DNA from: a virus
Virus record (IMG/VR): IMGVR_UViG_3300000563_000001
Location: 1 to 35,767 of that record
DNA: 35,767 nt
Strand: one strand, 5' to 3'
Position 1 is the stretch's first letter, and the number at the start of each line of letters is the position of its first letter. The notes under the pieces are model-generated. The model did not search any database. It saw nothing but the letters and a program-made list of their open reading frames with translations, and had not been told where the DNA came from. The position numbers and the translations under genes are program-made. Positions 203 through 35,767 of the stretch are shown piece after piece.

Positions 203-550
203 ATGGCATGTTCAAATTTACCTTGCAATCTTTGTAATAGATTATTAAAATCAACTAGCGTAGAAATAAAAGGGGTAGCACCTAACCAAGTTTTAACTAT
301 AACTATACCTAGTACAGAATTAGAAAATTTAGAAAATTACTGTTTGGTTATATGTCAAAAATTGCCAATAGGAAGTGACGAATTACCAGCAGTGGTAAAT
401 GATGGCGGAACTATATTACCTCTAGAATGTAAAAAAGGAAATTATATACACAGTGAACAACTTTGCACAAGAAGAAGATATAGTGTAACTTATGGAAATG
501 ACCCTTTCCATTTAATGATTAATAATAATGTTCCTTTATTTGAAATATAA
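203..550 (+). CDS. Cys-rich hypothetical protein (115 aa, 7 Cys)
   Basis: ORF track. AGGAG at 188-192 lies 10 nt upstream of the ATG. No family recognised. Confidence 0.7.
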   Translation: MACSNLPCNLCNRLLKSTSVEIKGVAPNQVLTITIPSTELENLENYCLVICQKLPIGSDELPAVVNDGGTILPLECKKGNYIHSEQLCTRRRYSVTYGNDPFHLMINNNVPLFEI

Positions 551-2708: not shown

Positions 2709-3035
2709 ATGGGAATTAAAAAAGTTAATGGGGTATTATTTAAAGGTCAATATTTAGAAAACTTAAAAAAATTAAATAAAGGTAAAACAATAACACATAA
2801 AGATTTTGGGTTGGGGACTTATCACACTACAATAAAATTTGAATTTTTTACCAATCTATTAGATAAAGCAAATATAAAATATAATAAACAAGGTACTAAT
2901 TTTTCTAATTTAAAAATAGTTAGAGTTAAAAAACAAAAAAACCAAGTAGAAATATTGATATTTACAATTATACAAATATTTTTAGCGTGTATAGTAGGTT
3001 GGATAATAGGAAAAATATTAGCTTTTTTATATTAA
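2709..3035 (+). CDS. Tail-anchored membrane protein (108 aa), stand-alone transcription unit
   Basis: ORF track; GGGG SD upstream. The C-terminal hydrophobic helix is ILIFTIIQIFLACIVGWIIGKILAFLY. It has its own promoter and follows a terminator. Confidence 0.65.
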   Translation: MGIKKVNGVLFKGQYLENLKKLNKGKTITHKDFGLGTYHTTIKFEFFTNLLDKANIKYNKQGTNFSNLKIVRVKKQKNQVEILIFTIIQIFLACIVGWIIGKILAFLY

Positions 3036-3096
3036 TGTGATTGCAAATTATAAACTTGCATTTATTTATTTAAAGAAAAAATAAAAATTAATTAAT

Positions 3097-3232
3097 ATAT
3101 TTATATAATAAGAGATATTTTAAATTTTTTCACTCTAAAATCATGTCTTAAGGTGCTATTTAAAGCTATTCTATCGTTAAAATCCGTAAGCGTTTTTGTT
3201 CTAAAAACTGCTTATGTTTTACAAGTTGTCAG
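3097..3232 (-). repeat. Intergenic cassette copy A (core), reverse orientation
   Basis: The reverse complement reads CTGACAACTTGTAAAACATAAGCAG...GCTTTAAATAGCA...CTCTTATTATATAAATAT. It shares a 16-mer and a 13-mer with copy D and a 16-mer with copies B and C. Confidence 0.85.
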
Positions 3233-3284
3233 ATTATAAATTTTGCAAGATTTTAATAATTAGAAATCATTTTTCCTAAAAGTA

Positions 3285-3313
3285 TTGCAATTTATAGCGT
3301 GTTGACGTATGAT
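3285..3313 (+). promoter_or_regulatory. Candidate promoter of the primase-helicase gene (TTGCAA-17-TATGAT), with a GTGTTGACG box in the spacer
   Basis: Hexamers at 3285-3290 and 3308-3313. Alternatively GTGTTGACG (3299-3307) is itself a -35 of the early-promoter family, but no -10 follows at 17 bp. Confidence 0.4.
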
Positions 3314-5754: not shown

Positions 5755-5766
5755 TCTTAAAAAGTG

Positions 5767-5795
5767 TTGACAATGTATTAGTTATTCTATATAAT
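5767..5795 (+). promoter_or_regulatory. Early promoter gtgTTGACA-17-TATAAT
   Basis: Consensus hexamers with an exact 17-bp spacer. It shares AAGTGTTGACAATGTATT with the promoter at 8617 and TATAATAATAATTGTAG with the one at 11384. Confidence 0.8.
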
Positions 5796-6708: not shown

Positions 6709-6722
6709 TTATTAAAAATGTG

Positions 6723-6754
6723 TTGACATTGTATAAATTATAGTGTAATATAAT
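6723..6754 (+). promoter_or_regulatory. Early promoter tgtgTTGACA-17-TAATAT (or 20 bp to TATAAT)
   Basis: GTGTTGACATTGTAT box read directly; -10 candidates at 6746-6751 and 6749-6754. Confidence 0.6.
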
Positions 6755-8608: not shown

Positions 8609-8616
8609 AATAAGTG

Positions 8617-8646
8617 TTGACAATGTATTGTATTATATGTTAGAAT
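8617..8646 (+). promoter_or_regulatory. Early promoter gtgTTGACA-18-TAGAAT
   Basis: The AAGTGTTGACAATGTATT box is identical to 5764-5781. Confidence 0.6.
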
Positions 8647-10038: not shown

Positions 10039-10686
10039 ATGATGAAAAGAAATAAAATAAAAAGAATTATATTAATAGCGTTATTGGGAATATCTTTTTT
10101 AACTATAAGCAAGTTCGGATTAAAGGCATTTACAAAGCCATCTAACAATTATAATATTTCCTCTATACAAAGTATAAATAACAATAGAAAAATTGATTCA
10201 GTGACTATTTTGGAGGAACTGAAAGAAACTGGAAGGATTGAAATAATGCAGGGTTTTACTTCTAAAGAAATAGAGATTAAAAACGGGATTGCTGATAATG
10301 TTATATTTAAAAATAATAAATATATAAATTTCAAAGGGTTAGGACATTATTATATAGATTTGCAAAATTTAAAAGACAATCAAGTACAGGTGAACGAGGA
10401 TAAAAGAGAGGTTACTATTTTCTTAAGTTCTCCAATTTTGGAACTAGAATTATTAGAAGATAAAACAGAATTTAAAACAGAACAAGGTATACTTATATTT
10501 AATAATTTTAAAATGGAATTAGAGGAATATGAAAAGTTAAAACAAGATATAAAAATAGATATGATTAAAAAACTTTCGGAAGAGGATTGTATAAAAGAAG
10601 TAAATGAGAAAACCGAAAAAATAATTAATGAAACTGTAATAAAATTAGTAAAAAGTGGATATAATATTAATATAAGATTTGTATAA
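10039..10686 (+). CDS. N-terminally anchored membrane protein, DUF4230-like (215 aa)
   Basis: N-terminal TM helix IILIALLGISFLTI. The segment GLGHYYIDLQNLKDNQVQVNEDKREVTIFLSSPILE resembles the DUF4230 pattern (aGiDL..l....i.vd...k.i.i.LP.p.i). Confidence 0.45.
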   Translation: MMKRNKIKRIILIALLGISFLTISKFGLKAFTKPSNNYNISSIQSINNNRKIDSVTILEELKETGRIEIMQGFTSKEIEIKNGIADNVIFKNNKYINFKGLGHYYIDLQNLKDNQVQVNEDKREVTIFLSSPILELELLEDKTEFKTEQGILIFNNFKMELEEYEKLKQDIKIDMIKKLSEEDCIKEVNEKTEKIINETVIKLVKSGYNINIRFV

Positions 10687-10703: not shown

Positions 10704-11363
10704 ATGTTAAGGAAAAAGTTAATAAAAATAATATCAAAAATATTAATAATATCTAGTTTAATAGTAACTCTTTTAATGCCTATAAATTCATGTTTGGCAC
10801 GTTCTAATAAAAGCATACTAATATATCATAGTCACACTAGTGAAGCTTACACAGATGATTATAACGTAGTTAAAGCAGGCGAAGACTTAAGCAACAAATT
10901 AAGAAAAAAAGGGTATATAGTACATCATGTAATAGATAAATTTGACAATGATTATAATAATAGTTATTATTGTTCTAATAAAATGCTAAAAGGGAAAGAT
11001 TTAAATAGTTATGATTTAATAATTGATTATCACAGAGATGCTATAAATGATAAAAAAATAGTAACTAAAGATAAAAACAATAATGAAGTAGCTAAAACTA
11101 TGTTTGTTATAACTAAAGAGCAGGAAAATTTTAATAAACAAAATAATATTGTAAAGAATTTAGAAAAGGAATTAATTACAGTTTCTGAATCTGATATGGT
11201 TCGAAAAACATGGTATTACAACAAAGGTATAAATTACTATAGTCAAAATTTATCAGATAATATAATACTTATAGAAAATGGATTTAATACTAATACAGAA
11301 CTAGAAATAAAAAGAGCAAATACTTATCTAAGTTACTCTATTGATAAAGTTTTAAAAAAATAA
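10704..11363 (+). CDS. spoIIP: SpoIIP-family cell-wall amidase homologue (219 aa) with an N-terminal signal/TM segment
   Basis: ILIYHSHTSEAY, DYHRDA, AKTMFVITK and YSQNLSDNIILIENG reproduce the conserved SpoIIP blocks (iYHTH..E.Y; DiHRDa; Akimfv; NQ.l....lLiE.G). Hydrophobic N-terminus IISKILIISSLIVTLLMPI. Confidence 0.8.
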   Translation: MLRKKLIKIISKILIISSLIVTLLMPINSCLARSNKSILIYHSHTSEAYTDDYNVVKAGEDLSNKLRKKGYIVHHVIDKFDNDYNNSYYCSNKMLKGKDLNSYDLIIDYHRDAINDKKIVTKDKNNNEVAKTMFVITKEQENFNKQNNIVKNLEKELITVSESDMVRKTWYYNKGINYYSQNLSDNIILIENGFNTNTELEIKRANTYLSYSIDKVLKK

Positions 11364-11383
11364 AAAAAGTTTTCATAAATGTG

Positions 11384-11412
11384 TTGACAATATATATACA
11401 TTGCAGTATAAT
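11384..11412 (+). promoter_or_regulatory. Early promoter gtgTTGACA-17-TATAAT
   Basis: Consensus hexamers with an exact 17-bp spacer. The initial transcribed 17-mer is identical to the 5790 promoter. Confidence 0.8.
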
Positions 11413-11856: not shown

Positions 11857-11861
11857 AAGTG

Positions 11862-11890
11862 TTGACATTGTGTAATATGTGTATTAATTT
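11862..11890 (+). promoter_or_regulatory. Early-family promoter gtgTTGACA-17-TAATTT (weak -10)
   Basis: AAAGTGTTGACATTGTGTA box read directly. The -10 is poor. Confidence 0.45.
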
Positions 11891-12478: not shown

Positions 12479-12537
12479 AATATTCGTAATGGTACGAACA
12501 ATAAAGCTAAAAAAATTAAAAATATTCGTCTTTTTAT

Positions 12538-12696
12538 GTGTTGACACGAAAGCACTTTTTTTCTAAAAAACGCTTTTTTATTTTAACGATAAAATCCAGT
12601 CGCCAAGCGGGTTGAGGTCACTTTTTACCTTCAAATAATTCAAAATAGTTCTTATTATATAAATATCTTTTATTCTTTTTTATTTATTTAGAAAGG
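12538..12696 (+). repeat. Intergenic cassette copy B, forward orientation
   Basis: gtgTTGACA...GCACTTTTTTTCTAAAAAACGC...TTTTAACGATA...CTTATTATATAAATATCTTTT...TTATTTATTTAGAAAGG. It shares a 21-mer and a 17-mer with copy C and has an 11-nt deletion relative to the other copies. Confidence 0.85.
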
Positions 12697-12754
12697 ATAT
12701 TATTATTTGTATATTCGTGTTTCGTATCTAATAATTATCACCACCCTAAGCAAA

Positions 12755-12783
12755 TTGAATTTTGTGACCACAAATGGTATAAT
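12755..12783 (+). promoter_or_regulatory. Box promoter of the packaging/head operon: TTGAAT-tt[TGTGACCACA]aatgg-TATAAT
   Basis: Exact 17-bp spacer; extended -10 TGGTATAAT. The spacer 10-mer is shared with the promoters at 18261-18289 (-) and 33553-33581 (+). Confidence 0.8.
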
Positions 12784-12814
12784 TAATATATATAAATGAA
12801 AGGAGTTGATTGAT

Positions 12815-13222
12815 ATGACAGTACCAGTTAAGGGAGGTCGACCAAAGGCATTTAATAGTGTCGAGGAGCTTGAAAAGAAAATTGAAGAGTTTTATGACTA
12901 TTGTGAATTAAAAGAAGAGACTTTGACTTTTGAAAGATTATCAACGTTTCTAAATGTAGATAGAAAAACCATTTATAATTATGAAGATAAAGACGAGTAT
13001 TTCCACACTTTTAAAAAAGTTAGAGAGAGAATATTAGCTGATATAATGAGTAAAGGTTTAGGGAATAAGATAAATCCAACCTTTGGAATATTCTGTTTGA
13101 AGAATTATGGATATACAGATAAGCAAGAGATTGAAAGCACTAATACAAATACTAATAAGAATATTAATGTTGACCATCTAAGTACAGAACAAATCAAGGA
13201 ACTATTAAAAGATGAAAGTTAA
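12815..13222 (+). CDS. terS: Terminase small subunit
   Basis: The N-terminal GGRPKAF...EELEKKIEEFYDYC motif is typical of HTH-type TerS. It lies directly upstream of and overlaps terL. The ATG at 12815 is 9 nt after AAAGGAG, whereas the ORF-track TTG at 12806 abuts the SD. Confidence 0.8.
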   Translation: MTVPVKGGRPKAFNSVEELEKKIEEFYDYCELKEETLTFERLSTFLNVDRKTIYNYEDKDEYFHTFKKVRERILADIMSKGLGNKINPTFGIFCLKNYGYTDKQEIESTNTNTNKNINVDHLSTEQIKELLKDES

Positions 13223-14600
13223 GCAACAATTACAATGCGAATTAGCAAGACGTGAGTTTTGGTATTATTGTAAATTGATGGCTAGTGATTTCTATAAAGA
13301 TGATAGAATATACCTGAAAGAGATTTGTGACACTCTCCAAGAGTTTTATGAAGGAGATAAACAAGTGCTGTGTATTAATTTACCGCCGAGGCATGGGAAA
13401 TCTAGAACAGCAACCCTTTTCGTAGAGTGGTGCTTGGGTAAAGACAATAGTCTTAAGGTTATGACAGGCTCATACAATGAAACTCTATCAACTACATTTT
13501 CAAGACAAGTTAGAGGAGCAATCCAGGAAATTAAGGCAGATGAAGATAAATTAGTATATAATGATATATTCCCCTCTACTAAAATAAAGTACGGAGATGG
13601 GGCAGTAAACCTTTGGAGCTTAGAAGGTAACAATAATAAGAACTATCTAGCAACATCGCCCACAGGGACTGCCACAGGCTTTGGAGCTGACATTCTAATT
13701 ATAGACGATGTAATCAAAAATGCAGAAGAAGCAAATAATGCTAATGTACTAGAAAAACATTGGGATTGGTTTTGTAATACTATGCTGTCAAGATTGCAGG
13801 GCAAAAGAAAAGTCATAATTATTATGACAAGATGGGCAACACAAGATTTAGCAGGTAGAGCAATAAGACACTTTAAAGATATTAATCAAAATGTAGAACT
13901 ATTAAGTATGAAGGCTTTTGATGGTTCAAAAATGCTTTGTAATGATGTTTTAAACCTAGAACAATACGAAACATTAACCAAAACTCTAGGTGATGACATA
14001 GCCTCTGCAAACTACAATCAAGAGCCTATTGACTTAAAAGGTGTTTTATATTCTAATTTAAAAACTTATGATAGTATTGAAGATATAGGAATTAAAAGTA
14101 TAAACAATTATACAGATACAGCAGACACTGGGAAGGATTATTTATGTAGCATAACCTATGCGGTAGATAAAGACAAAAACGCTTATATATTAGATGTAAT
14201 ATACACTCAAGAGCCTATGGAAATTACTGAACCTCTTCTCGCTAAAACTTTGTTAGAATATAAGGTAAATTATGCAAATATAGAAAGTAACAACGGGGGG
14301 CGTGGGTTCGCTAGAAATGTTAATAGGATTATCAATGGCGTAAATAATAGACATACAATAATAAGACCATTTAGCCAAACAAAAAATAAAGAATCAAGAA
14401 TATTAACAGGTTCTACTGGCGTTATGAATAGTATTTATTTCCCTAGTGATTGGAAATATAGATATCCTGATTTTTATAGAGATGTAACAACTTATCAAAG
14501 AGCTGGTAAAAACAAACATGATGATAGCGTAGATGCACTTACTGGTGTATATGAGAAAATTCAAAGCAATAATATTATGCGTACTAATGCAAGACTATAA
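13212..14600 (+). CDS. terL: Terminase large subunit
   Basis: Walker A-like PPRHGKSRT, Walker B ILIIDDV, C-terminal nuclease motifs DTADTGKDY and HDDSVDALTG. 462 aa, with the portal gene next. Confidence 0.9.
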   Translation: MKVKQQLQCELARREFWYYCKLMASDFYKDDRIYLKEICDTLQEFYEGDKQVLCINLPPRHGKSRTATLFVEWCLGKDNSLKVMTGSYNETLSTTFSRQVRGAIQEIKADEDKLVYNDIFPSTKIKYGDGAVNLWSLEGNNNKNYLATSPTGTATGFGADILIIDDVIKNAEEANNANVLEKHWDWFCNTMLSRLQGKRKVIIIMTRWATQDLAGRAIRHFKDINQNVELLSMKAFDGSKMLCNDVLNLEQYETLTKTLGDDIASANYNQEPIDLKGVLYSNLKTYDSIEDIGIKSINNYTDTADTGKDYLCSITYAVDKDKNAYILDVIYTQEPMEITEPLLAKTLLEYKVNYANIESNNGGRGFARNVNRIINGVNNRHTIIRPFSQTKNKESRILTGSTGVMNSIYFPSDWKYRYPDFYRDVTTYQRAGKNKHDDSVDALTGVYEKIQSNNIMRTNARL

Positions 14601-14612
14601 AGAGGTGATAAA

Positions 14613-16019
14613 ATGTTAACTTTTCAAGATTATTTAAATAGTAGTGATAAAATAGGCTTTATAAATGATGCTATAATAGAGTTTAAAGCGTCTGAAAGAT
14701 ACAAGATAGCTAATATAGCTTGGGCATACTTTAGCGGTGAAAATGTAACCATTTTGGAACGTATGAAGTGGTTTTATAATACTAATGGTATAAAACAAGA
14801 AGATTTTTTTAAAGCTAATAACCAAATTCCATCTGCATTTTTCCCTAAGATAATTAAACAAGAATGTTCTTATTTACTTGCTAATGGTGTTACTATGGAA
14901 GATAAATTTAAAAAAGATTTAGGGAAGAAATTTGATAATAGAATTTATAAAAGTGGATTATATTCGAAAATAGATGGAGTAAGTTGGACTTATTGTCATT
15001 TGGATTCTAAAGGCAAATTCTGTGAAGATGTTTGGAGAGGCAATGAATTTGTGCCTTTATTCGATGAAAGAACAGCAACTCTTATGGCTGGAATAAGGTT
15101 CTGGCAATTAGATGTTAACAAACCTATGTTTGTAGAGTTTTACGAACAAGATGGAATTACAGAACTACAAAGTAATAAACAAAATAATTTGATAGTGACT
15201 AAAGAAAAACAACCTTATAAATTAATTAAAAAAATAGATGTACTAGGAGAAAGAATAGAAGGAGAGAATTGGAGCATACTTCCTATAGTTCCATTATATT
15301 CAGGGATATTAAAGAAAAGTTCGTTGACTATTTCTCTAAGAAATCAAATTGACCTTTTTGATAAAATTTCTTCTGACTTTGGAAACAATTTGGAAGATGC
15401 ACAAGACATTTATTGGATTCTTAAAAATTATGCAGGACAAGATATGGAACAGTTTTTAAAGGATTATAAATATTATAAAACTATACAAATTACTGACGAA
15501 GGAGAAGCAAGCCCACATACCATAGAGGTACCACATGAAGCTAGAAAAATAGCTTTAGAAATATTAAGAAAGCAAATTTATGCTACTGCTATGGCTACAG
15601 ACATGGACACTTTGACTGGTGGAAGCTTGACAGCTACAGCTATAAGAATAGCTACCCAAGATTTAGATTTAAAAACGGATGAATTTGAAATAAATGTTAT
15701 TGATTATATAGAAAATATTCTTAATATATACAATGAATATAAAGGCTCTAACGAGGAATATGAATTTAAATTAATAAGAAGGACATTAATTAATGATACT
15801 GAAACTATAGACAATATTTATAAATTTAGAAATGATATAGATTTAGAAACTGCATTGAGATTAAATCCTTATATAAGTGATGCAGATGTGGACGATATTA
15901 TCAAGAAATTAGAAGAGGAAAATATAAATAAATTTAGTTATGAAGAAGAAAATACATCTATAGAAGAACCTGAAAATGGTGCAATACAACAAAAGGAAAA
16001 CAAAGAAGAGGTGGTGTAA
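14613..16019 (+). CDS. Portal protein (SPP1 gp6-like)
   Basis: 468 aa immediately after terL, with an acidic C-terminus. Size and position are canonical. Confidence 0.85.
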   Translation: MLTFQDYLNSSDKIGFINDAIIEFKASERYKIANIAWAYFSGENVTILERMKWFYNTNGIKQEDFFKANNQIPSAFFPKIIKQECSYLLANGVTMEDKFKKDLGKKFDNRIYKSGLYSKIDGVSWTYCHLDSKGKFCEDVWRGNEFVPLFDERTATLMAGIRFWQLDVNKPMFVEFYEQDGITELQSNKQNNLIVTKEKQPYKLIKKIDVLGERIEGENWSILPIVPLYSGILKKSSLTISLRNQIDLFDKISSDFGNNLEDAQDIYWILKNYAGQDMEQFLKDYKYYKTIQITDEGEASPHTIEVPHEARKIALEILRKQIYATAMATDMDTLTGGSLTATAIRIATQDLDLKTDEFEINVIDYIENILNIYNEYKGSNEEYEFKLIRRTLINDTETIDNIYKFRNDIDLETALRLNPYISDADVDDIIKKLEEENINKFSYEEENTSIEEPENGAIQQKENKEEVV

Positions 16020-16928
16020 TTGGATTTTGCACATCAAGAAACGGACAAAATGTTGTTTAATTTGGAAAAAGAACTCAATAAAATCTATAAGCAATCATAC
16101 TTTGAATGTAAATCAAAACTAAATAAAAATCAGAAACTAATTGATGAACTTAGTAAAACTGATGACTTAATAAAGCGTAACAATTTACTTAGGAAAAAGA
16201 ATAGACTTGACACTCTATTAAAACAGATGATGTTAAATATAAATTCAACTAATGAAATAGCTGTAAAGATGATTAACAATGATATGATAGATGTATATTG
16301 GTTTAATTATGCTTACTTAGGTTATACTATAGAAAAGACTTTAAATGCTAGAATAGGATTCCAAGTATTTAATCAGAATGTAATTAAAAAGCTATTACAG
16401 GACGAGTTAAACCCTTTTACTTTGCTTACTATAGATAAATTAAAAGATAAAGGGAATATTTATTCTCAACTTAAAAGAGAGCTAAGTGTTGGACTATTGC
16501 AAGGAGAGAGTATAACTAATTTAGCTAAGAGAATGGAAAAGGTTCTTAATATAAGTCATAACTCTAGTATAACTATGGCTAGAACAGAAACAACTAGAAT
16601 AGAAAGTTCGGCTAGGATGGATAGTTTTGAATTTGCAGAAACTAAAGGCATAAAAGTAAAAAAAGAATGGATTAGTACAATTGATAAGCGTACTAGGAAA
16701 AGCCATAGAAGACTAATGGGAGAAATTAGAGAGATTGACGAAAAGTTTTCTAATGGTCTTATGTATCCCGGAGACCCAAATGGGAAAGCTGAGGAAGTTA
16801 TTAGGTGCCGTTGCACTATGGTATCTAAATTAGTTGACTTAGAGGAAACTAGAAAAGAATTAGAACTTGATGAAAGAATAAAGAAAATGAGTTTTGAAGA
16901 GTGGGGTGTTGAATATGCTAAAGATTAA
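16020..16928 (+). CDS. Head morphogenesis protein (SPP1 gp7 / Mu F family), TTG start
   Basis: MARTETTRIESSARMDSF, IDKRTRKSHRRLMGE and VIRCRCTM are hallmark MuF-family motifs. It follows the portal gene. Confidence 0.85.
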   Translation: MDFAHQETDKMLFNLEKELNKIYKQSYFECKSKLNKNQKLIDELSKTDDLIKRNNLLRKKNRLDTLLKQMMLNINSTNEIAVKMINNDMIDVYWFNYAYLGYTIEKTLNARIGFQVFNQNVIKKLLQDELNPFTLLTIDKLKDKGNIYSQLKRELSVGLLQGESITNLAKRMEKVLNISHNSSITMARTETTRIESSARMDSFEFAETKGIKVKKEWISTIDKRTRKSHRRLMGEIREIDEKFSNGLMYPGDPNGKAEEVIRCRCTMVSKLVDLEETRKELELDERIKKMSFEEWGVEYAKD

Positions 16929-17307
16929 CATACAAGATAATAGCAAAAAATTACTCGGAGAAACAGAAGAAAAAAAAGAAAAAATATTGTATATGATTGG
17001 GTTGGAATGGCAACGCATAGTAACTAAAATAATAACTGAAAAGAAAATAGTAGATACTGGTAGACTAAGAGCTTCTATGAGTTTTATAACTAATAAGAGA
17101 CAAGTAAAAGGTACTAGAGTACCCGAAACTCTTCCAAAAGATTATTTGAGTGGTAGAGCTGGTAAAGATGAATTAATAGTAGGTAGTAATGTTGAATATG
17201 CAGAAAAAAATGAACTTACTAATAGAAAAGGTGATTTCTTAAGACCTTCATTACTGGAACATACAGGTGTATACCAAAAAATAGCAGATTCAGTTTTTAA
17301 AGAATAA
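16915..17307 (+). CDS. HK97 gp10-like head-tail joining family protein (about 130 aa; start trimmed)
   Basis: The VDTGRLRASMSF motif matches the gp10 family (vDTG.Lr.S). The ATG at 16915 follows GGGGTG. It overlaps the previous gene's end. Confidence 0.55.
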   Translation: MLKINIQDNSKKLLGETEEKKEKILYMIGLEWQRIVTKIITEKKIVDTGRLRASMSFITNKRQVKGTRVPETLPKDYLSGRAGKDELIVGSNVEYAEKNELTNRKGDFLRPSLLEHTGVYQKIADSVFKE

Positions 17308-17311
17308 AAAA

Positions 17312-17340
17312 AAGAGGTATTAACTACCTCTTATATTTTT
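17312..17340. terminator. Bidirectional rho-independent terminator between convergent genes
   Basis: aagaggta/tacctctt 8-bp stem flanked by an A-run upstream and ATATTTTTT downstream. The stop codon of the minus-strand ORF lies in the stem. Confidence 0.8.
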
Positions 17341-17908
17341 TGTTTATTTTATTAAATTTTATTAATATAATTATTAAATAAATTAACATAGAAGGAAAGA
17401 ATATAACTCCTACTGGAATTGGGAATATTGCACTTAATATACTTCCTATAATTGTAACACCTAAAAATCTATAAGCTATGCAATTTTTATAATATTTATT
17501 AGGCGTATTTGTTTTAATTATGTTCAAAGTTTTTTTGCATTGTACTTTTACATCTCTAAACACTTCTTTTATTTCTTCTAACTGTTTTTTATTGTGTTCT
17601 TTTCTAAGCTTAACAAAGACATGTTTGAATTCTTTTTTAGATTCTCTATCTAAGTTAAGATAAAACTCATGGAATGACCTGAAATCCATGCTATCTCCTT
17701 TTGTAAACAGTTTTACAGTATCATCTACACTAATTGTAGTCTTATTATATATCTTGTTATATAAAGCTTTATGAGGGTCATTAATCCACCCCATACCTTT
17801 TTTACCATACCAAGGTATAAATGCTTTTTTAGCTTTTCTTTTAAGTTTAGCAGTAGTACGAGATTTTATTCTATTTTTAAGATTTATTTTTCTAATTCCT
17901 AATTTCAT
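17324..17908 (-). CDS. Membrane protein (194 aa): basic N-terminal domain with a YGKKGMGWINDPHKALYNKIYNKTT motif and two C-terminal TM helices
   Basis: ORF track. ATGA overlap with the upstream small ORF. C-terminal hydrophobic stretch FLGVTIIGSILSAIFPIPVGVIFFPSMLIYLIIILI. Confidence 0.75.
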   Translation of the reverse strand: MKLGIRKINLKNRIKSRTTAKLKRKAKKAFIPWYGKKGMGWINDPHKALYNKIYNKTTISVDDTVKLFTKGDSMDFRSFHEFYLNLDRESKKEFKHVFVKLRKEHNKKQLEEIKEVFRDVKVQCKKTLNIIKTNTPNKYYKNCIAYRFLGVTIIGSILSAIFPIPVGVIFFPSMLIYLIIILIKFNKINKKYKR

Positions 17909-18066
17909 ATTATTTCAATTCCTTTCTGATTTGATATTTGTGTATGTTCAATCCAGTCTTTTTGTATAAAATCACACAAGTATGGTAAACCTTCATTTAA
18001 AAAAGTATTTAAAGTTATATAACCTTCTTTTTTATTATATTCGTTTCTTATTTTTCTTATTTTCAT
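17905..18066 (-). CDS. Small protein (53 aa), paralogue of 18063..18230
   Basis: Read from the reverse complement: MKIRKIRNEYNKKEGYITLNTFLNEGLPYL.... ATGA overlaps occur at both ends. Below the ORF-track cutoff. Confidence 0.55.
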   Translation of the reverse strand: MKIRKIRNEYNKKEGYITLNTFLNEGLPYLCDFIQKDWIEHTQISNQKGIEII

Positions 18067-18230
18067 AATATGTTATTTCTCTCCTCTTCATTTAATAAGT
18101 AATCATCAAACCATAGACCCGATTCTGTAAATTCATAACCCAAAGGTAATTTGTTATTTTTAATAAGCTTTTCTATAGTAATATATTTTATTTTATTAGT
18201 AGCAATATTTCTTATTTTCCTAACTAACAT
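18063..18230 (-). CDS. Small protein (55 aa), first gene of the antisense operon
   Basis: Reverse complement: MLVRKIRNIATNKIKYITIEKLIKNNKLPLGYEF.... AGAGGTG lies 7 nt upstream. It is directly downstream of the box promoter. Confidence 0.55.
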   Translation of the reverse strand: MLVRKIRNIATNKIKYITIEKLIKNNKLPLGYEFTESGLWFDDYLLNEEERNNIL

Positions 18231-18260
18231 TTAATATCACCTCTTTGATTTGTTAATTAT

Positions 18261-18289
18261 ATTCTATCAGATTGTGGTCACATTGTCAA
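18261..18289 (-). promoter_or_regulatory. Box promoter of the antisense operon: TTGACA-a[TGTGACCACA]atctga-TAGAAT
   Basis: Reverse complement of 18261-18289 with an exact 17-bp spacer. The box is at 18273-18282. Confidence 0.75.
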
Positions 18290-18371
18290 TAGCCTGACTG
18301 TAGTAAGTTAACTTAGGAAGTTATTAATTGAAGATGAAAAGATTGAAATTGCATATATCATAATTGCATTA

Positions 18372-18547
18372 CCTTTCTAAATAAATAATTTATAAAAAAA
18401 TAAAAAGATATTTATATAATAAGGAACTTTTTTAATAATATTGAGCCTCGACTGGCTACAAACCCAGTAAATAAGCCAATCCTTTAGCAGAGTGACGTAA
18501 GCACTTTTCCAAAAAAAACTGCTCCAAAATTGTGACGTTGTCAACAC
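18372..18547 (-). repeat. Intergenic cassette copy C, reverse orientation
   Basis: The reverse complement reads gtgTTGACAACGTCAC...GGAGCAGTTTTTTTTGGAAAAGTGCTTACGTCAC...CCTTATTATATAAATATCTTTTT...TTATTTATTTAGAAAGG. Confidence 0.85.
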
Positions 18548-18616
18548 GCTATTTTTAGTGCTTTTTGCAAGTTTTTAATTTACTTCTTGCATATTTATAC
18601 GTACATTGACAGCAAA

Positions 18617-18645
18617 TTGACAAAAAAAAATTCGTGTTATATAAT
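18617..18645 (+). promoter_or_regulatory. Promoter of the scaffold/capsid operon TTGACA-17-TATAAT
   Basis: Consensus hexamers. The spacer contains ATTCGTGTT, also found at 12713-12721. Confidence 0.8.
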
Positions 18646-32919: not shown

Positions 32920-32985
32920 ATGGGAAAAGCTACACAAACAAAAACTACTAAAAAGAAAAAAGTAAGAATTAGGAAGAAAAAATAA
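32920..32985 (+). CDS. Possible 21-codon Lys-rich upstream ORF (MGKATQTKTTKKKKVRIRKKK) overlapping the next start (TAATG)
   Basis: ATG 7 nt after AGGGGTGA. The stop overlaps the ATG at 32985 by 1 nt. Confidence 0.3.
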   Translation: MGKATQTKTTKKKKVRIRKKK

Positions 32986-33248
32986 TGTTAAGTAGAAGTC
33001 AGGTGAAGAGGGTGTTAGATTGCCCCTCTAAGCCACTTTTAATTCTAGCTTTGGAATTGGTCAATCTTAAAGAAAAAGAACGTGTAGCGATAGAATATGT
33101 GGACATTAAAGGCTATACAGAAGAACAGACAGCAGAGATTTTAAATATAAGTAGAAGTAGTATCACTAAATATAGGAAAAATGCTTATAATAAAATGGGA
33201 AAAGTGTGGGAAAAAGAAAAATCGATAAAAACAATTTTGGAGGGTTAG
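32985..33248 (+). CDS. Sigma-70 region-4-like HTH protein (87 aa; a late-regulator candidate)
   Basis: LKEKERVAIEYVDIKGYTEEQTAEILNISRSSITKYRKNAYNKM is a typical sigma r4 / YlxM-like HTH. No region 2 is present. Confidence 0.6.
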   Translation: MLSRSQVKRVLDCPSKPLLILALELVNLKEKERVAIEYVDIKGYTEEQTAEILNISRSSITKYRKNAYNKMGKVWEKEKSIKTILEG

Positions 33249-33281: not shown

Positions 33282-33327
33282 AATAAATATACAAAGTAAA
33301 CGCTTAAATAGCAAATAAATATACAAA
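33282..33327 (+). repeat. Two direct copies of AATAAATATACAAA, 32 bp apart
   Basis: Read directly at 33282-33295 and 33314-33327, between the terminator and cassette copy D. Confidence 0.7.
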
Positions 33328-33335
33328 AAATCCAT

Positions 33336-33471
33336 CTGACAACTTGTAAAATCGGAGCAGTTTTCAGAGAAAAAGTGCTTTCGCAAATTTACTAAAGAAT
33401 TGCTTTAAATAGCATGTTTGAATATGATTTGATGCCAATAAAATTATAAATGTACTCTTATATATAAATAT
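33336..33471 (+). repeat. Intergenic cassette copy D (core), forward orientation
   Basis: CTGACAACTTGTAAAATCGGAGCAGTTTTCAGAGAAAAAGTGCTTTCGC...GCTTTAAATAGCA...CTCTTATATATAAATAT. Confidence 0.85.
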
Positions 33472-33552
33472 TATTTTATTTTTTTATTTTTTTAATAATG
33501 TATAAATTTAATGTATATCACTTTTCTAAATTAATCTCCTTCGGCTAGGTAG

Positions 33553-33581
33553 TTGACAATGTGACCACATTGGTATATAAT
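33553..33581 (+). promoter_or_regulatory. Box promoter TTGACA-a[TGTGACCACA]ttggta-TATAAT
   Basis: Consensus hexamers with an exact 17-bp spacer. The box is at 33560-33569. Confidence 0.8.
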
Positions 33582-33613
33582 TAAGACAATAAATAATTTA
33601 GGGGGAAAATAAA

Positions 33614-33781
33614 ATGGAAAACAACAATAATAATGATTTAACTAAAGATGATTTTATTCACATGAGAATTAATAAAGAACTTAAAGCAAGAGCTATAAAA
33701 GTTGCAAAAGCTAATTACACAGATTTAACACAAATGGTTACTGATTGTTTAGTTAAAATAGTAAAAGAAAATAATGTATAG
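33614..33781 (+). CDS. Ribbon-helix-helix (Arc/CopG-like) DNA-binding protein (55 aa)
   Basis: The pattern HMRINKELKARAIKVAKANYTDLTQMVTDCLVKIV fits beta strand, helix, N.T turn, helix. GGGGGA SD. It is the first gene after the box promoter and is below the ORF-track cutoff. Confidence 0.55.
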   Translation: MENNNNNDLTKDDFIHMRINKELKARAIKVAKANYTDLTQMVTDCLVKIVKENNV

Positions 33782-33794
33782 AGGTGGTTATAAA

Positions 33795-33959
33795 ATGAAA
33801 AATATGAAAGAACTTTTTGAAAATATAGAAAAATGTGATTATAAATGTATTGCTGGAGATTTAGAAAATAATATTGATTATATAGAAATTAAAAAAAGAT
33901 TTTATGAATTAGAAGAAACTTTAAATTTATTAGTCGGTGTAACATTTTCTAATAAATAA
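33795..33959 (+). CDS. Hypothetical small protein (54 aa; start trimmed)
   Basis: The ATG at 33795 is 7 nt after GAGGTGG. Confidence 0.55.
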   Translation: MKNMKELFENIEKCDYKCIAGDLENNIDYIEIKKRFYELEETLNLLVGVTFSNK

Positions 33960-33998
33960 CATATAATAAAGTATAAAGAAAAATAAGGAGTGTTAAAA

Positions 33999-34160
33999 AT
34001 GGATTGTAAACAAGAATTAGTAAATCAAATAAAGAAAACTTTTAAAGGTATAGATAATCCAGTAGCATATTCAAATTATTTAACTAATTTATGTACTAGA
34101 GAATATTTAAAATTAAGTTCAATGAATGAAATTATAGCATGTAAGGAGATAGAACAATAA
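33999..34160 (+). CDS. Hypothetical small protein (53 aa)
   Basis: ATG 8 nt after AAGGAG. Below the ORF-track cutoff. Confidence 0.5.
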   Translation: MDCKQELVNQIKKTFKGIDNPVAYSNYLTNLCTREYLKLSSMNEIIACKEIEQ

Positions 34161-35201: not shown

Positions 35202-35767
35202 ATGGCTATGGCTGATTTACAAGGAATAATTCCAACAATGGACGTAAAAGGTGGCAATGATGGTTTCGGTGGCGGTAATGGCTCTTGGGTACTTTTATTA
35301 TTCTTTTTACTAGCGATGGGTGGTAATGGTTTTGGAGGAAATGGAAACGCAAGAGGTGAAATTTCAAACGACTTTTTATACACAAACTTAAGTCAGGGAC
35401 TAAACACTGATTTCTTACAAATTTCTAATCAAAACATGCAAACATCAAGAGATGTATGTTCAGGATTCGCAGGAGTAAACGCAAGTATTGCAGAAAATAG
35501 ATTCGCAGGTCAACAATGTTGTTGTGAAACTAATAGAAATATTGATTCGGTAAAATTTGAAAACTTAAATAATACTAGGGACATAATAGCAAACGCAACT
35601 GCTAACACTCAAGCTATACTTGACAAAATGTGTGCTACAGAAGTACAAAACTTAAGAGATGAATTAAATGAAACTAGAAGACGAGCAGACATATGTTCTC
35701 AAAATGATATGTTAATATCTAACTTAAGACCATTCCCAGTACCTGCATATCCTAGTTGTTCACCATA
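35202..35767 (+). CDS. 5' part of the wrap-around ORF (total about 223 aa): Gly/Asn-rich flanks around one TM helix, then a Cys-rich (9 Cys) C-terminal domain
   Basis: The ATG at 35202 follows AGGAGGAGG. There is no stop before the contig end, so the ORF track missed it. The sequence reads GGNDGFGGGNGSWVLLLFFLLAMGGNGFGGNGN...QQCCCE... and continues at 66..108. Confidence 0.8.
   Translation, partial: MAMADLQGIIPTMDVKGGNDGFGGGNGSWVLLLFFLLAMGGNGFGGNGNARGEISNDFLYTNLSQGLNTDFLQISNQNMQTSRDVCSGFAGVNASIAENRFAGQQCCCETNRNIDSVKFENLNNTRDIIANATANTQAILDKMCATEVQNLRDELNETRRRADICSQNDMLISNLRPFPVPAYPSCSP
35703..35767. repeat. Terminal overlap, identical to 1-65
   Basis: Read directly. Confidence 0.95.

Follow-up and report, generated by a model that had tools for sequence, protein, structure and literature searches.

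A Ten-Base Palindromic Box in Three Promoter Spacers of a Low-GC Phage Genome: A Predicted Operator and a Small RelB-like Candidate Repressor

Introduction

Why should three promoters that lie far apart in one phage genome carry the same ten bases at nearly the same place, between their −35 and −10 hexamers? The question is raised by IMG/VR virus record IMGVR_UViG_3300000563_000001, whose complete stretch of 35,767 nucleotides is referred to here as the window. The three promoters, designated P_D, P_B and P_C, share the 10-mer TGTGACCACA (the box), and the first gene after P_D encodes a 55-aa candidate ribbon-helix-helix (RHH) protein that resembles RelB and ParD antitoxins. The box is considered here with respect to chance, common descent and protein binding, and the RHH candidate is proposed as the protein that would bind it. 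Coordinates of the features are collected in Table 1.

A Box Shared by Three Promoters

All three promoters have the attributes of the sigma-A/sigma-70 type, namely recognizable hexamers, a 17-bp spacer, and a place in intergenic DNA ahead of a gene that has a ribosome-binding site, and of all sigma-A-type matches in the window they are among the strongest. They had been listed in a preliminary description made from the letters alone, and on re-reading its positions and sequences matched exactly, as did the 17-bp length of every spacer. P_B drives terS, terL, the portal gene, a Mu-F-like gene and a gene for a 137-aa protein (12815–17307). The terS gene was recognized by Pfam GP3_package, while SPP1_portal and Phage_Mu_F were identified in a syntenic contig, L100.

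Exact copies of the box number three when both strands of the whole window are searched, and copies with one mismatch number zero, so the 10-mer is not frequent elsewhere. Markov models of order 0 to 3 predict 0.013–0.027 exact copies on both strands, versus the three observed, and for the degenerate dyad TGTGNNCACA such models predict 0.13–0.20 occurrences, again versus three. Each copy is intergenic and lies within a promoter spacer, at about −28 to −19. The recurrence of the box is real and not a product of chance. The earlier statement that no further full copy occurs stands for the exact 10-mer; it does not stand for near copies, for example the variant TGTG-TT-GACA and the sequence TGTGTTGACA at 6719, 11380 and 12537.

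It had also been supposed that the box at the packaging promoter ties the timing of late genes to the box-binding factor. This part of the proposal falls. The scaffold, capsid, tail and lysis genes are under the promoter at 18617–18645, which has a perfect consensus and no box. Since the promoter of this scaffold-to-lysis operon is box-free, the box by itself cannot set late-gene timing, and among the late genes it can govern only the terS-to-Mu-F unit.

Conservation of the Box in Relatives

A megablast search of INPHARED returned no close relative, IMG/VR yielded only relatives with a terL identity of ≤60%, all without the box, and scans of IMG/VR for the RHH candidate and for a second putative DNA-binding protein of the genome (sigma-r4, discussed below) were empty. 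Syntenic contigs were reached through homologues of TerS and of the gene that follows P_D in a large protein collection. L100 and L101, together with L107–L109, derive from one sample, and L102, L106, L110–L114 and L115 are further syntenic contigs. Scanning IMG/VR with a pattern yielded three more (L125, L128 and L133), from the same wetland samples as L110. Neither the box nor the intergenic module described in the next section is present in the more distant relatives L103, L104, L116 and L120, whose TerS identities are ≤71%.

At P_D, the orthologous promoters read TTGACA-(a/t)-TGTG-(AC/GA/AC/TC/AC)-CAC-(A/A/A/A/G), then six variable bases and TATAAT, and both hexamers are kept in L106, L107, L110 and L115. 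At P_B, L100 has TGTGAACACA behind a −35 of TTGCAC, and L102 has TGTGTTTACA shifted by 2 nt. At P_C, the corresponding sequences are CGTGACCACA in L100 and TGTGAACACT in L102. In L125, L128 and L133 the P_C box is TGTGGTCACA, which is the reverse complement of the box in the window, at an unchanged position in the promoter.

Thirteen distinct orthologous or paralogous promoter instances, drawn from the window, L100, L102, L106, L107, L110, L115, L125 and L128, were compared position by position. The TGTG and CACA arms are almost invariant (4 mismatches in 104 cells, for eight arm positions in 13 instances). Mismatches are common at the two central positions (11 of 26), where the dinucleotides AC, AA, GA, TC and GT are seen, and at the six positions of the distal spacer (24 of 60). 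The difference has a Fisher p of 1.6e-8, for instances that are related and hence not phylogenetically independent. The symmetric arms are thus more strongly conserved across relatives than the centre and the flanks, as is characteristic of a dyad operator.

Because the arms are conserved, the centre is free and orientation is indifferent, the box would appear to be a protein site with two-fold symmetry. Simple common descent does not predict this combination. The best reading of the box is as the core of a 12-bp predicted dyad operator, (A/T)TGTG-NN-CACA(A/T). The preliminary description had taken the spacer palindrome for an operator at which a bound factor occludes RNA polymerase, and given the conserved dyad within strong promoters, that too remains the best reading. 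The longest palindrome is that of copy D, beside the RHH gene: it measures 16 bp in the window, and its L107 counterpart 18 bp, as an autoregulatory site would lead one to expect.

Paralogous Intergenic Modules

Each box promoter forms the 3′ end of an intergenic module of about 250–300 nt, and the genome has four paralogous copies of this module (A–D). Grouping the three promoters as a box-sharing set was correct, but this larger module had been overlooked. Blocks held in common include a TGACAAC-type element, an AGCA-TTTT/AAAA-TGCT inverted repeat, GCTTTAAATAGCA, the exact 16-mer CTTATTATATAAATAT and a T-rich tract. The modules border the main transcription units and show 63–84% nucleotide identity in relatives, about the same as neighboring genes. 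Two other roles for the modules were considered and rejected. As structured RNA they have no Rfam match, and RNAalifold, applied to five orthologues (318 columns), gave −13 to −16 kcal/mol with a covariation penalty on both strands. As additional promoters they fail as well, for the distal TTGACA-like elements have no −10 at 16–18 bp.

Such modules invite an explanation in which no trans-acting factor takes part. The 10-mer would have been inherited with a duplicated promoter cassette, gene conversion among the four modules possibly keeping it uniform, or it would be a feature of the spacer that acts directly on RNA polymerase. The three promoters do end paralogous modules of about 300 nt that are overall about as conserved as their neighboring genes, and TTGACAATGT is also common to box-free early promoters. 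Moreover, the boxes of the window are alike in centre and orientation, whereas copies within the relatives differ among themselves. Against this, the box is intact between paralogous modules whose adjoining sequence has diverged nearly to randomness, and in relatives the arms are spared, while the centre and distal spacer take the substitutions. Dyad symmetry is kept and the inverted copy of L125 holds its position, neither of which is predicted by common descent alone. In addition, no known sigma-A contact reads −28 to −19. A box without a binding factor is, on balance, improbable.

The Candidate Repressor

If a protein reads the box, the 55-aa product of the gene that follows P_D is the foremost candidate. 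Residues 17–55 match NCBIfam NF050811 (RelB_ParD_antitoxin, N-terminal half) with an E-value of 4.9e-5 and 23.5 bits, the curated cut-off being 60. All five homologues also match NF050811 (best E 4e-6, all sub-threshold), and three of the five match TIGR02384 RelB_DinJ. Pfam and PHROGs gave no match to the protein of the window, while DUF6364 was matched weakly by four of the five homologues. In a BLASTP comparison with E. coli RelB, IHMRINKELKARA was aligned with INLRIDDELKARS, a region that covers the strand and helix A of RelB. Homologues that are 62–84% identical overall all keep FIHMRIN, the putative DNA-reading strand, without change, and the operator arms are likewise conserved. This strand and the segment that follows it, KELKARAIKVAKANYTDLTQMVTDCLVKIV, form the pattern of an RHH domain: an N-terminal strand in which polar, DNA-facing residues alternate, then two amphipathic helices. 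The earlier suggestion that this gene encodes an RHH autorepressor is therefore plausible, in that RelB/ParD-type matches extend to all five homologues, although all of these matches fall below the curated cut-off.

How might such a protein act? A dimer of the 55-aa protein would place its N-terminal beta-ribbon (FIHMRIN) into the major groove across the dyad, where it would read the TGT/ACA triplets and tolerate any central dinucleotide. Once bound, it would block RNA polymerase from the flanking −35 and −10 boxes. The predicted outcome is that the protein would repress its own operon and, along with it, the antisense three-gene and terS-portal operons. What has been observed is the sequence pattern, where it lies in the promoters, how it is conserved, and the family resemblance of the protein; that a protein binds, which protein this is, and the direction and timing of its effect are inferred. 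RHH autorepression combined with co-repression of P_C and P_B is considered the best explanation of the box, and it is held with moderate confidence.

Several points weigh against it. The RHH assignment is sub-threshold (23.5 versus 60 bits) and has no Pfam counterpart, a search of PDB sequences with the RHH profile returned only noise, and the AF2 monomer model, built from a five-sequence alignment, is a single long helix (pLDDT 81) without a Foldseek match. Each promoter offers a lone 12-bp site with no second dyad beside it, while tight repression by RelB, Arc or Mnt takes two dimers side by side, and the 55-aa protein has no extra oligomerization domain. Position 5 of the hexad is G, versus A or C in relO, the operator of RelB. 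Repression of the packaging operon by the product of a consensus, presumably early, promoter raises a problem of timing, and the promoter of the main structural operon, at 18617, carries no box. Among the relatives, none keeps the box without the RHH gene, nor the reverse, so that the distribution of the two does not discriminate. Finally, a gene for a sigma-r4 helix-turn-helix (HTH) protein lies equally close to module D.

This last gene introduces a second explanation, namely that the operator is real but has another binder. The 87-aa sigma-r4/LuxR-type HTH protein could bind as a dimer to a NarL-like 7-2-7 site (CAATGTG-AC-CACATTG), or a host transcription factor could link the phage promoters to the physiology of the host. 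The 87-aa protein has the only DNA-binding domain in the genome above a curated profile threshold, its gene adjoins module D in every relative, and copy D is a perfect 7-2-7 palindrome. A widespread factor would also suit the occurrence of TTGACA-N-TGTGNNCACA promoters across IMG/VR phages of 35–64% GC (10 matches versus 0–1 in controls). However, the other copies and the orthologues do not conserve the outermost bases of the 7-2-7 site, and the sigma-r4 gene stands at the end of the lysis operon without a box of its own. As for host factors, the box is not known to match any of the regulator motifs, mainly of Firmicutes, with which it was compared, no database search being made for this. The motifs that do not fit are CRP/FNR (TGTGA-N6-TCACA), Rex, LexA, the Spo0A 0A box, the CcpA cre site, CodY, CopY/BlaI (TACANNTGTA), GerE, SpoIIID and the omega heptads. 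The DnaA box has only CCACA in common with the phage box, and this is lost in relatives. A binder other than the RHH candidate is judged rather unlikely. Beside the sigma-r4 gene is a 21-aa, highly basic open reading frame (MGKATQTKTTKKKKVRIRKKK; 32921–32986, plus strand) with a strong ribosome-binding site, whose stop overlaps the start of 32985–33248.

The sign of regulation could, in principle, be the opposite. An activator or sigma-remodeling factor comparable to that of the T4 MotA box, or a spacer-binding activator of the MerR type, might switch the units on at a set time. P_B has the weaker −35 (TTGAAT, and TTGCAC in L100) and heads the packaging operon; in many Firmicute phages, operons of this kind depend on a late activator that resembles a sigma factor, and a sigma-r4-like protein is encoded in the genome. 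On the other side, two of the three promoters match 11–12 of the 12 consensus positions and have the optimal 17-bp spacer, so that P_D and P_C need no activator. Activation of the MerR type requires spacers of 19–20 bp, and MotA-type promoters, unlike the box promoters, have no −35. Positive control is thus regarded as very improbable.

Variant Sites and Early Promoters

If RHH repression operates at the boxes, it may extend to related sequences elsewhere in the window. The 8-mer GTGTTGAC is the commonest intergenic 8-mer that is not a ribosome-binding site, and all eight of its copies are intergenic. In the form (T/A)GTGTTGACA, the element overlaps the −35 of five early promoters (5767, 6723, 8617, 11384 and 11862). 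The three copies of TGTGTTGACA and further A/C-GTGTTGACA variants are likewise all intergenic. A variant of the (T/A)GTGTTGACA type is the closest sequence to TGTGNNCACA that still holds a perfect TTGACA. We know of no role in sigma-A recognition for TGTG upstream of the −35, and this TGTG is also conserved in six promoters of L100. The variant sites are probably weaker sites of the same operator family, to judge from their sequence, and the RHH protein that would read the box may also bind TGTG-TT-GACA, only less tightly.

Modules B and C each contain a variant at their distal end as well. In L100 and L102 the orthologous distal position is taken by the reverse complement, TGTCAACACA, and L125 has a perfect TGTGTCCACA at the position orthologous to the distal site of module C. 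The spacings between distal and proximal sites (226, 234, 245, 260, 266 and 268 bp, computed by hand) show no conserved helical phase, so DNA looping between them remains speculation.

Comparison with Known Systems

The E. coli RelB/relO system offers the nearest model for the proposed RHH operator. At relO, one RelB dimer occupies one half-site, which is a 12-bp palindrome made up of two inverted hexads, [A/T]TGT[A/C]A (TTGTAATTACAA, TTGTAATGACAT); the TGT core and the dinucleotides on the flanks are critical, and the dinucleotide at the centre matters least (PMC2812701). The phage sequence ATGTGACCACAT and TTGTAATTACAA are alike in their TGT-N4-ACA geometry, A/T flanks and tolerant centre, and both proteins have an N-terminal RHH-type sequence (RI-x-x-ELKAR). 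In both, the operator, a predicted one in the phage, overlaps the protein's own promoter, and RelB is a negative autoregulator, as is proposed for the phage protein (PMC2812701). The systems differ in that the phage protein is 55 aa long, lacks the C-terminal toxin-binding tail and is not followed by a RelE/ParE-like toxin gene. The downstream open reading frames, 33774–33959 and 33990–34160, have no Pfam match and belong only to PHROGs of unknown function. Since there is neither a toxin gene nor a C-terminal domain (55 aa, RHH alone), the locus is not a toxin-antitoxin module. Other differences are the single 12-bp site per phage promoter in place of two adjacent ones, the G at position 5 of the phage hexad, and three unlinked target promoters versus one.

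Phage P22 Arc is a stand-alone RHH protein of 53 aa encoded by the first gene of the operon that it represses, and its operator sits in the −35/−10 spacer of a strong promoter. This operator is 21 bp long and takes two dimers at TAGA subsites 11 bp apart. The phage described here resembles the Arc/Pant system in having a small RHH candidate encoded by the first gene of an operon, a box within the promoter spacer, and binding that would exclude RNA polymerase. In contrast, Arc acts at one locus only, P22 is temperate and has a Gram-negative host, and Arc itself has no sequence similarity to the phage protein described here.

The omega repressor of the inc18 plasmid pSM19035 is a small Firmicute RHH protein with a regulon of three promoters, including its own, as is proposed for the phage protein. 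Omega binds 7–10 contiguous 7-bp heptads, (A/T)ATCAC(A/T), that overlap promoter elements, whereas the three phage promoters have no heptad arrays; each site is a single 10–12-bp dyad with half-sites that overlap within the 10-mer.

Phage phi29 (p4/p6) is a virulent Firmicute phage that relies on host sigma-A promoters. Its p4 protein binds upstream sites, contacts the alpha-CTD, and represses or activates. The likeness lies in a compact, conserved, AT-rich intergenic region of about 200–300 bp with several protein sites around promoters. The differences are that p4 is not an RHH protein, that there is no spacer dyad, and that phi29 has one such region, versus four paralogous modules here.

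Genome Context

Bases 1–65 of the window are identical to 35703–35767, and a gene for a 202-aa protein spans the junction. Because of this 65-nt identity of its ends, the window represents a complete genome of 35,702 bp that is closed into a circle (or terminally redundant). The sequence derives from the Logan assembly of SRR490128. The GC content is ~27%, almost all genes are on the plus strand, and intergenic DNA makes up 10.4% of the genome. No tRNA was found in the genome. Among the annotated genes, no integrase and no CI/Cro-type repressor was detected, and for this reason the phage is probably virulent.

The SpoIIP-like protein (10704–11363, plus strand) was assigned through a Pfam match of its L100 orthologue. 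Also encoded are a DUF4230 protein (10039–10686, plus strand) and a cysteine-rich 115-aa protein (203–550, plus strand). These three, along with the region-4/GerE-like protein, hint at a spore-forming host among the Clostridia.

The antisense operon under P_C begins with two paralogues, at 18063–18230 and 17905–18066 (both minus strand), that share 39% identity over 36 aa, and the PHROGs matched by the operon are of unknown function. The paralogues had been put forward as small DNA-binding proteins, a view that the structural model does not bear out: the AF2 model of the 55-aa paralogue is a confident, beta-rich fold (pLDDT 93.5) that has no DNA-binding signature and no PDB match (best E of 2). 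The pair is an uncharacterized family of small phage proteins. A perfect bidirectional terminator hairpin (17312–17332) lies between this operon and the converging terS-to-Mu-F unit.

Table 1. Positions and descriptions of the main features of the window.
Feature	Position	Strand	Description
Promoter P_D	33553–33581	+	TTGACA-a-TGTGACCACA-ttggta-TATAAT; 17-bp spacer; consensus 12/12
Promoter P_B	12755–12783	+	TTGAAT-tt-TGTGACCACA-aatgg-TATAAT; 17-bp spacer; extended −10 TGgTATAAT; consensus 10/12 plus TG
Promoter P_C	18289–18261	−	TTGACA-a-TGTGACCACA-atctga-TAGAAT; 17-bp spacer; TGaTAGAAT; consensus 11/12 plus TG
Box copy D	33560–33569	+	TGTGACCACA; core of perfect 16-bp palindrome CAATGTG-AC-CACATTG (33557–33572)
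Box copy B	12763–12772	+	TGTGACCACA; flanked as TTTGTG-AC-CACAAA
Box copy C	18273–18282	−	TGTGACCACA
Module A	3036–3270	−	Cut short by the 3′ end of open reading frame 2709–3035; no box promoter
Module B	12500–12790	+	Ends in P_B
Module C	18255–18600	−	Ends in P_C; divergent from consensus promoter 18617–18645
Module D	33290–33590	+	Ends in P_D; 79–84% nucleotide identity to four relatives, like flanking genes
Module B distal site	12537–12546	+	TGTGTTGACA; no usable −10 downstream; 226 bp upstream of box B
Module C distal site	18539–18548	−	cGTGTTGACA; 266 bp upstream of box C
Class I site	5763–5772	+	AGTGTTGACA; overlaps −35 of consensus early promoter 5767–5795
Class I site	6719–6728	+	TGTGTTGACA; overlaps −35 of promoter 6723–6751, upstream of ERF gene
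Class I site	8613–8622	+	AGTGTTGACA; overlaps −35 of promoter 8617–8646
Class I site	11380–11389	+	TGTGTTGACA; overlaps −35 of consensus promoter 11384–11412
Class I-like site	11858–11867	+	AGTGTTGACA; weak −10
Variant site	3298–3307	+	cGTGTTGACg; within spacer of promoter 3285–3313, upstream of helicase gene
GTGTTGAC copies	3299, 5764, 6720, 8614, 11381, 11859, 12538	+	
GTGTTGAC copy	18540	−	
RelB/ParD-like RHH candidate	33614–33781	+	55 aa; first gene after P_D
Sigma-70 region-4/LuxR-type HTH-only protein	32985–33248	+	87 aa; Pfam Sigma70_r4_2, E 1.3e-7, 31.5 bits versus cut-off of 25.7
Antisense operon	17324–18230	−	55-aa and 53-aa paralogues, then 194-aa protein with C-terminal membrane segment; under P_C
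Block of small genes		+	No function assigned; first in gene order
Replication block			ResIII helicase, Gp157, ERF, ERCC4-type nuclease, SSB; plus DUF4230 and SpoIIP-like genes
Packaging block			terS, terL, SPP1-type portal, Mu-F-like gene; then three antisense genes
Structural/lysis block			Scaffold, capsid, tail, amidase, holin; then 87-aa sigma-70 region-4 HTH-only protein

Wider Occurrence and Significance

Promoters of the same design occur outside this group of phages. The pattern TTGACA-N-TGTGNNCACA-N5-6-TATAAT has 10 matches in IMG/VR, three from relatives and seven from about six unrelated lineages of 35–64% GC, while two composition-matched controls gave one match (TGTGNNACAC) and none (CACANNTGTG). 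The unrelated loci with TGTGNNCACA one base after the −35 are L124, L126, L127, L129, L130, L131 and L132. In L124, a promoter of this design drives an operon containing a Pfam RHH_3 protein, and L129 has TGTGAACACA three times in 7.6 kb. These matches are suggestive of a wider occurrence of box promoters in phages, the counts being small and the background model incomplete.

Of separate interest is the exact 17-mer TTGACAATGTGACCACA, which has no match in IMG/VR and 61 in a metagenome scan, nearly all of them coding or unrelated. Its promoter-like matches in L056 and L059 belong to autoregulated genes of the TetR family that have operators of their own (TGACCA-NN-TGGTCA, twice), and they are coincidental.

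A broader proposal is that TGTG-N2-CACA one base after a consensus −35 would be a widespread phage design read by stand-alone RelB-like RHH proteins. It would be graded in this phage, from perfect spacer dyads through one-mismatch dyads over early −35 hexamers to distal sites about 225–270 bp upstream in the conserved AT-rich modules, such that one tiny repressor might set genome-wide timing, possibly with looping. The proposal in this full form seems a long shot.

Even the more limited circuit, autorepression and co-repression by the RHH candidate, is of a familiar type of phage control and leaves the general understanding of phage regulation unchanged. If it is true, an uncultivated, Clostridia-type, apparently virulent phage would run at least three transcription units through one 55-aa RHH protein, and the controlled units may reach the early replication promoters. 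It would be a case of antitoxin-style operator logic without any toxin. The repressor and its operator would make up a compact, portable pair usable with consensus Gram-positive promoters, and the sequence rule (A/T)TGTG-NN-CACA(A/T) at −28 to −19 would serve for annotating the regulons of related metagenomic phages.

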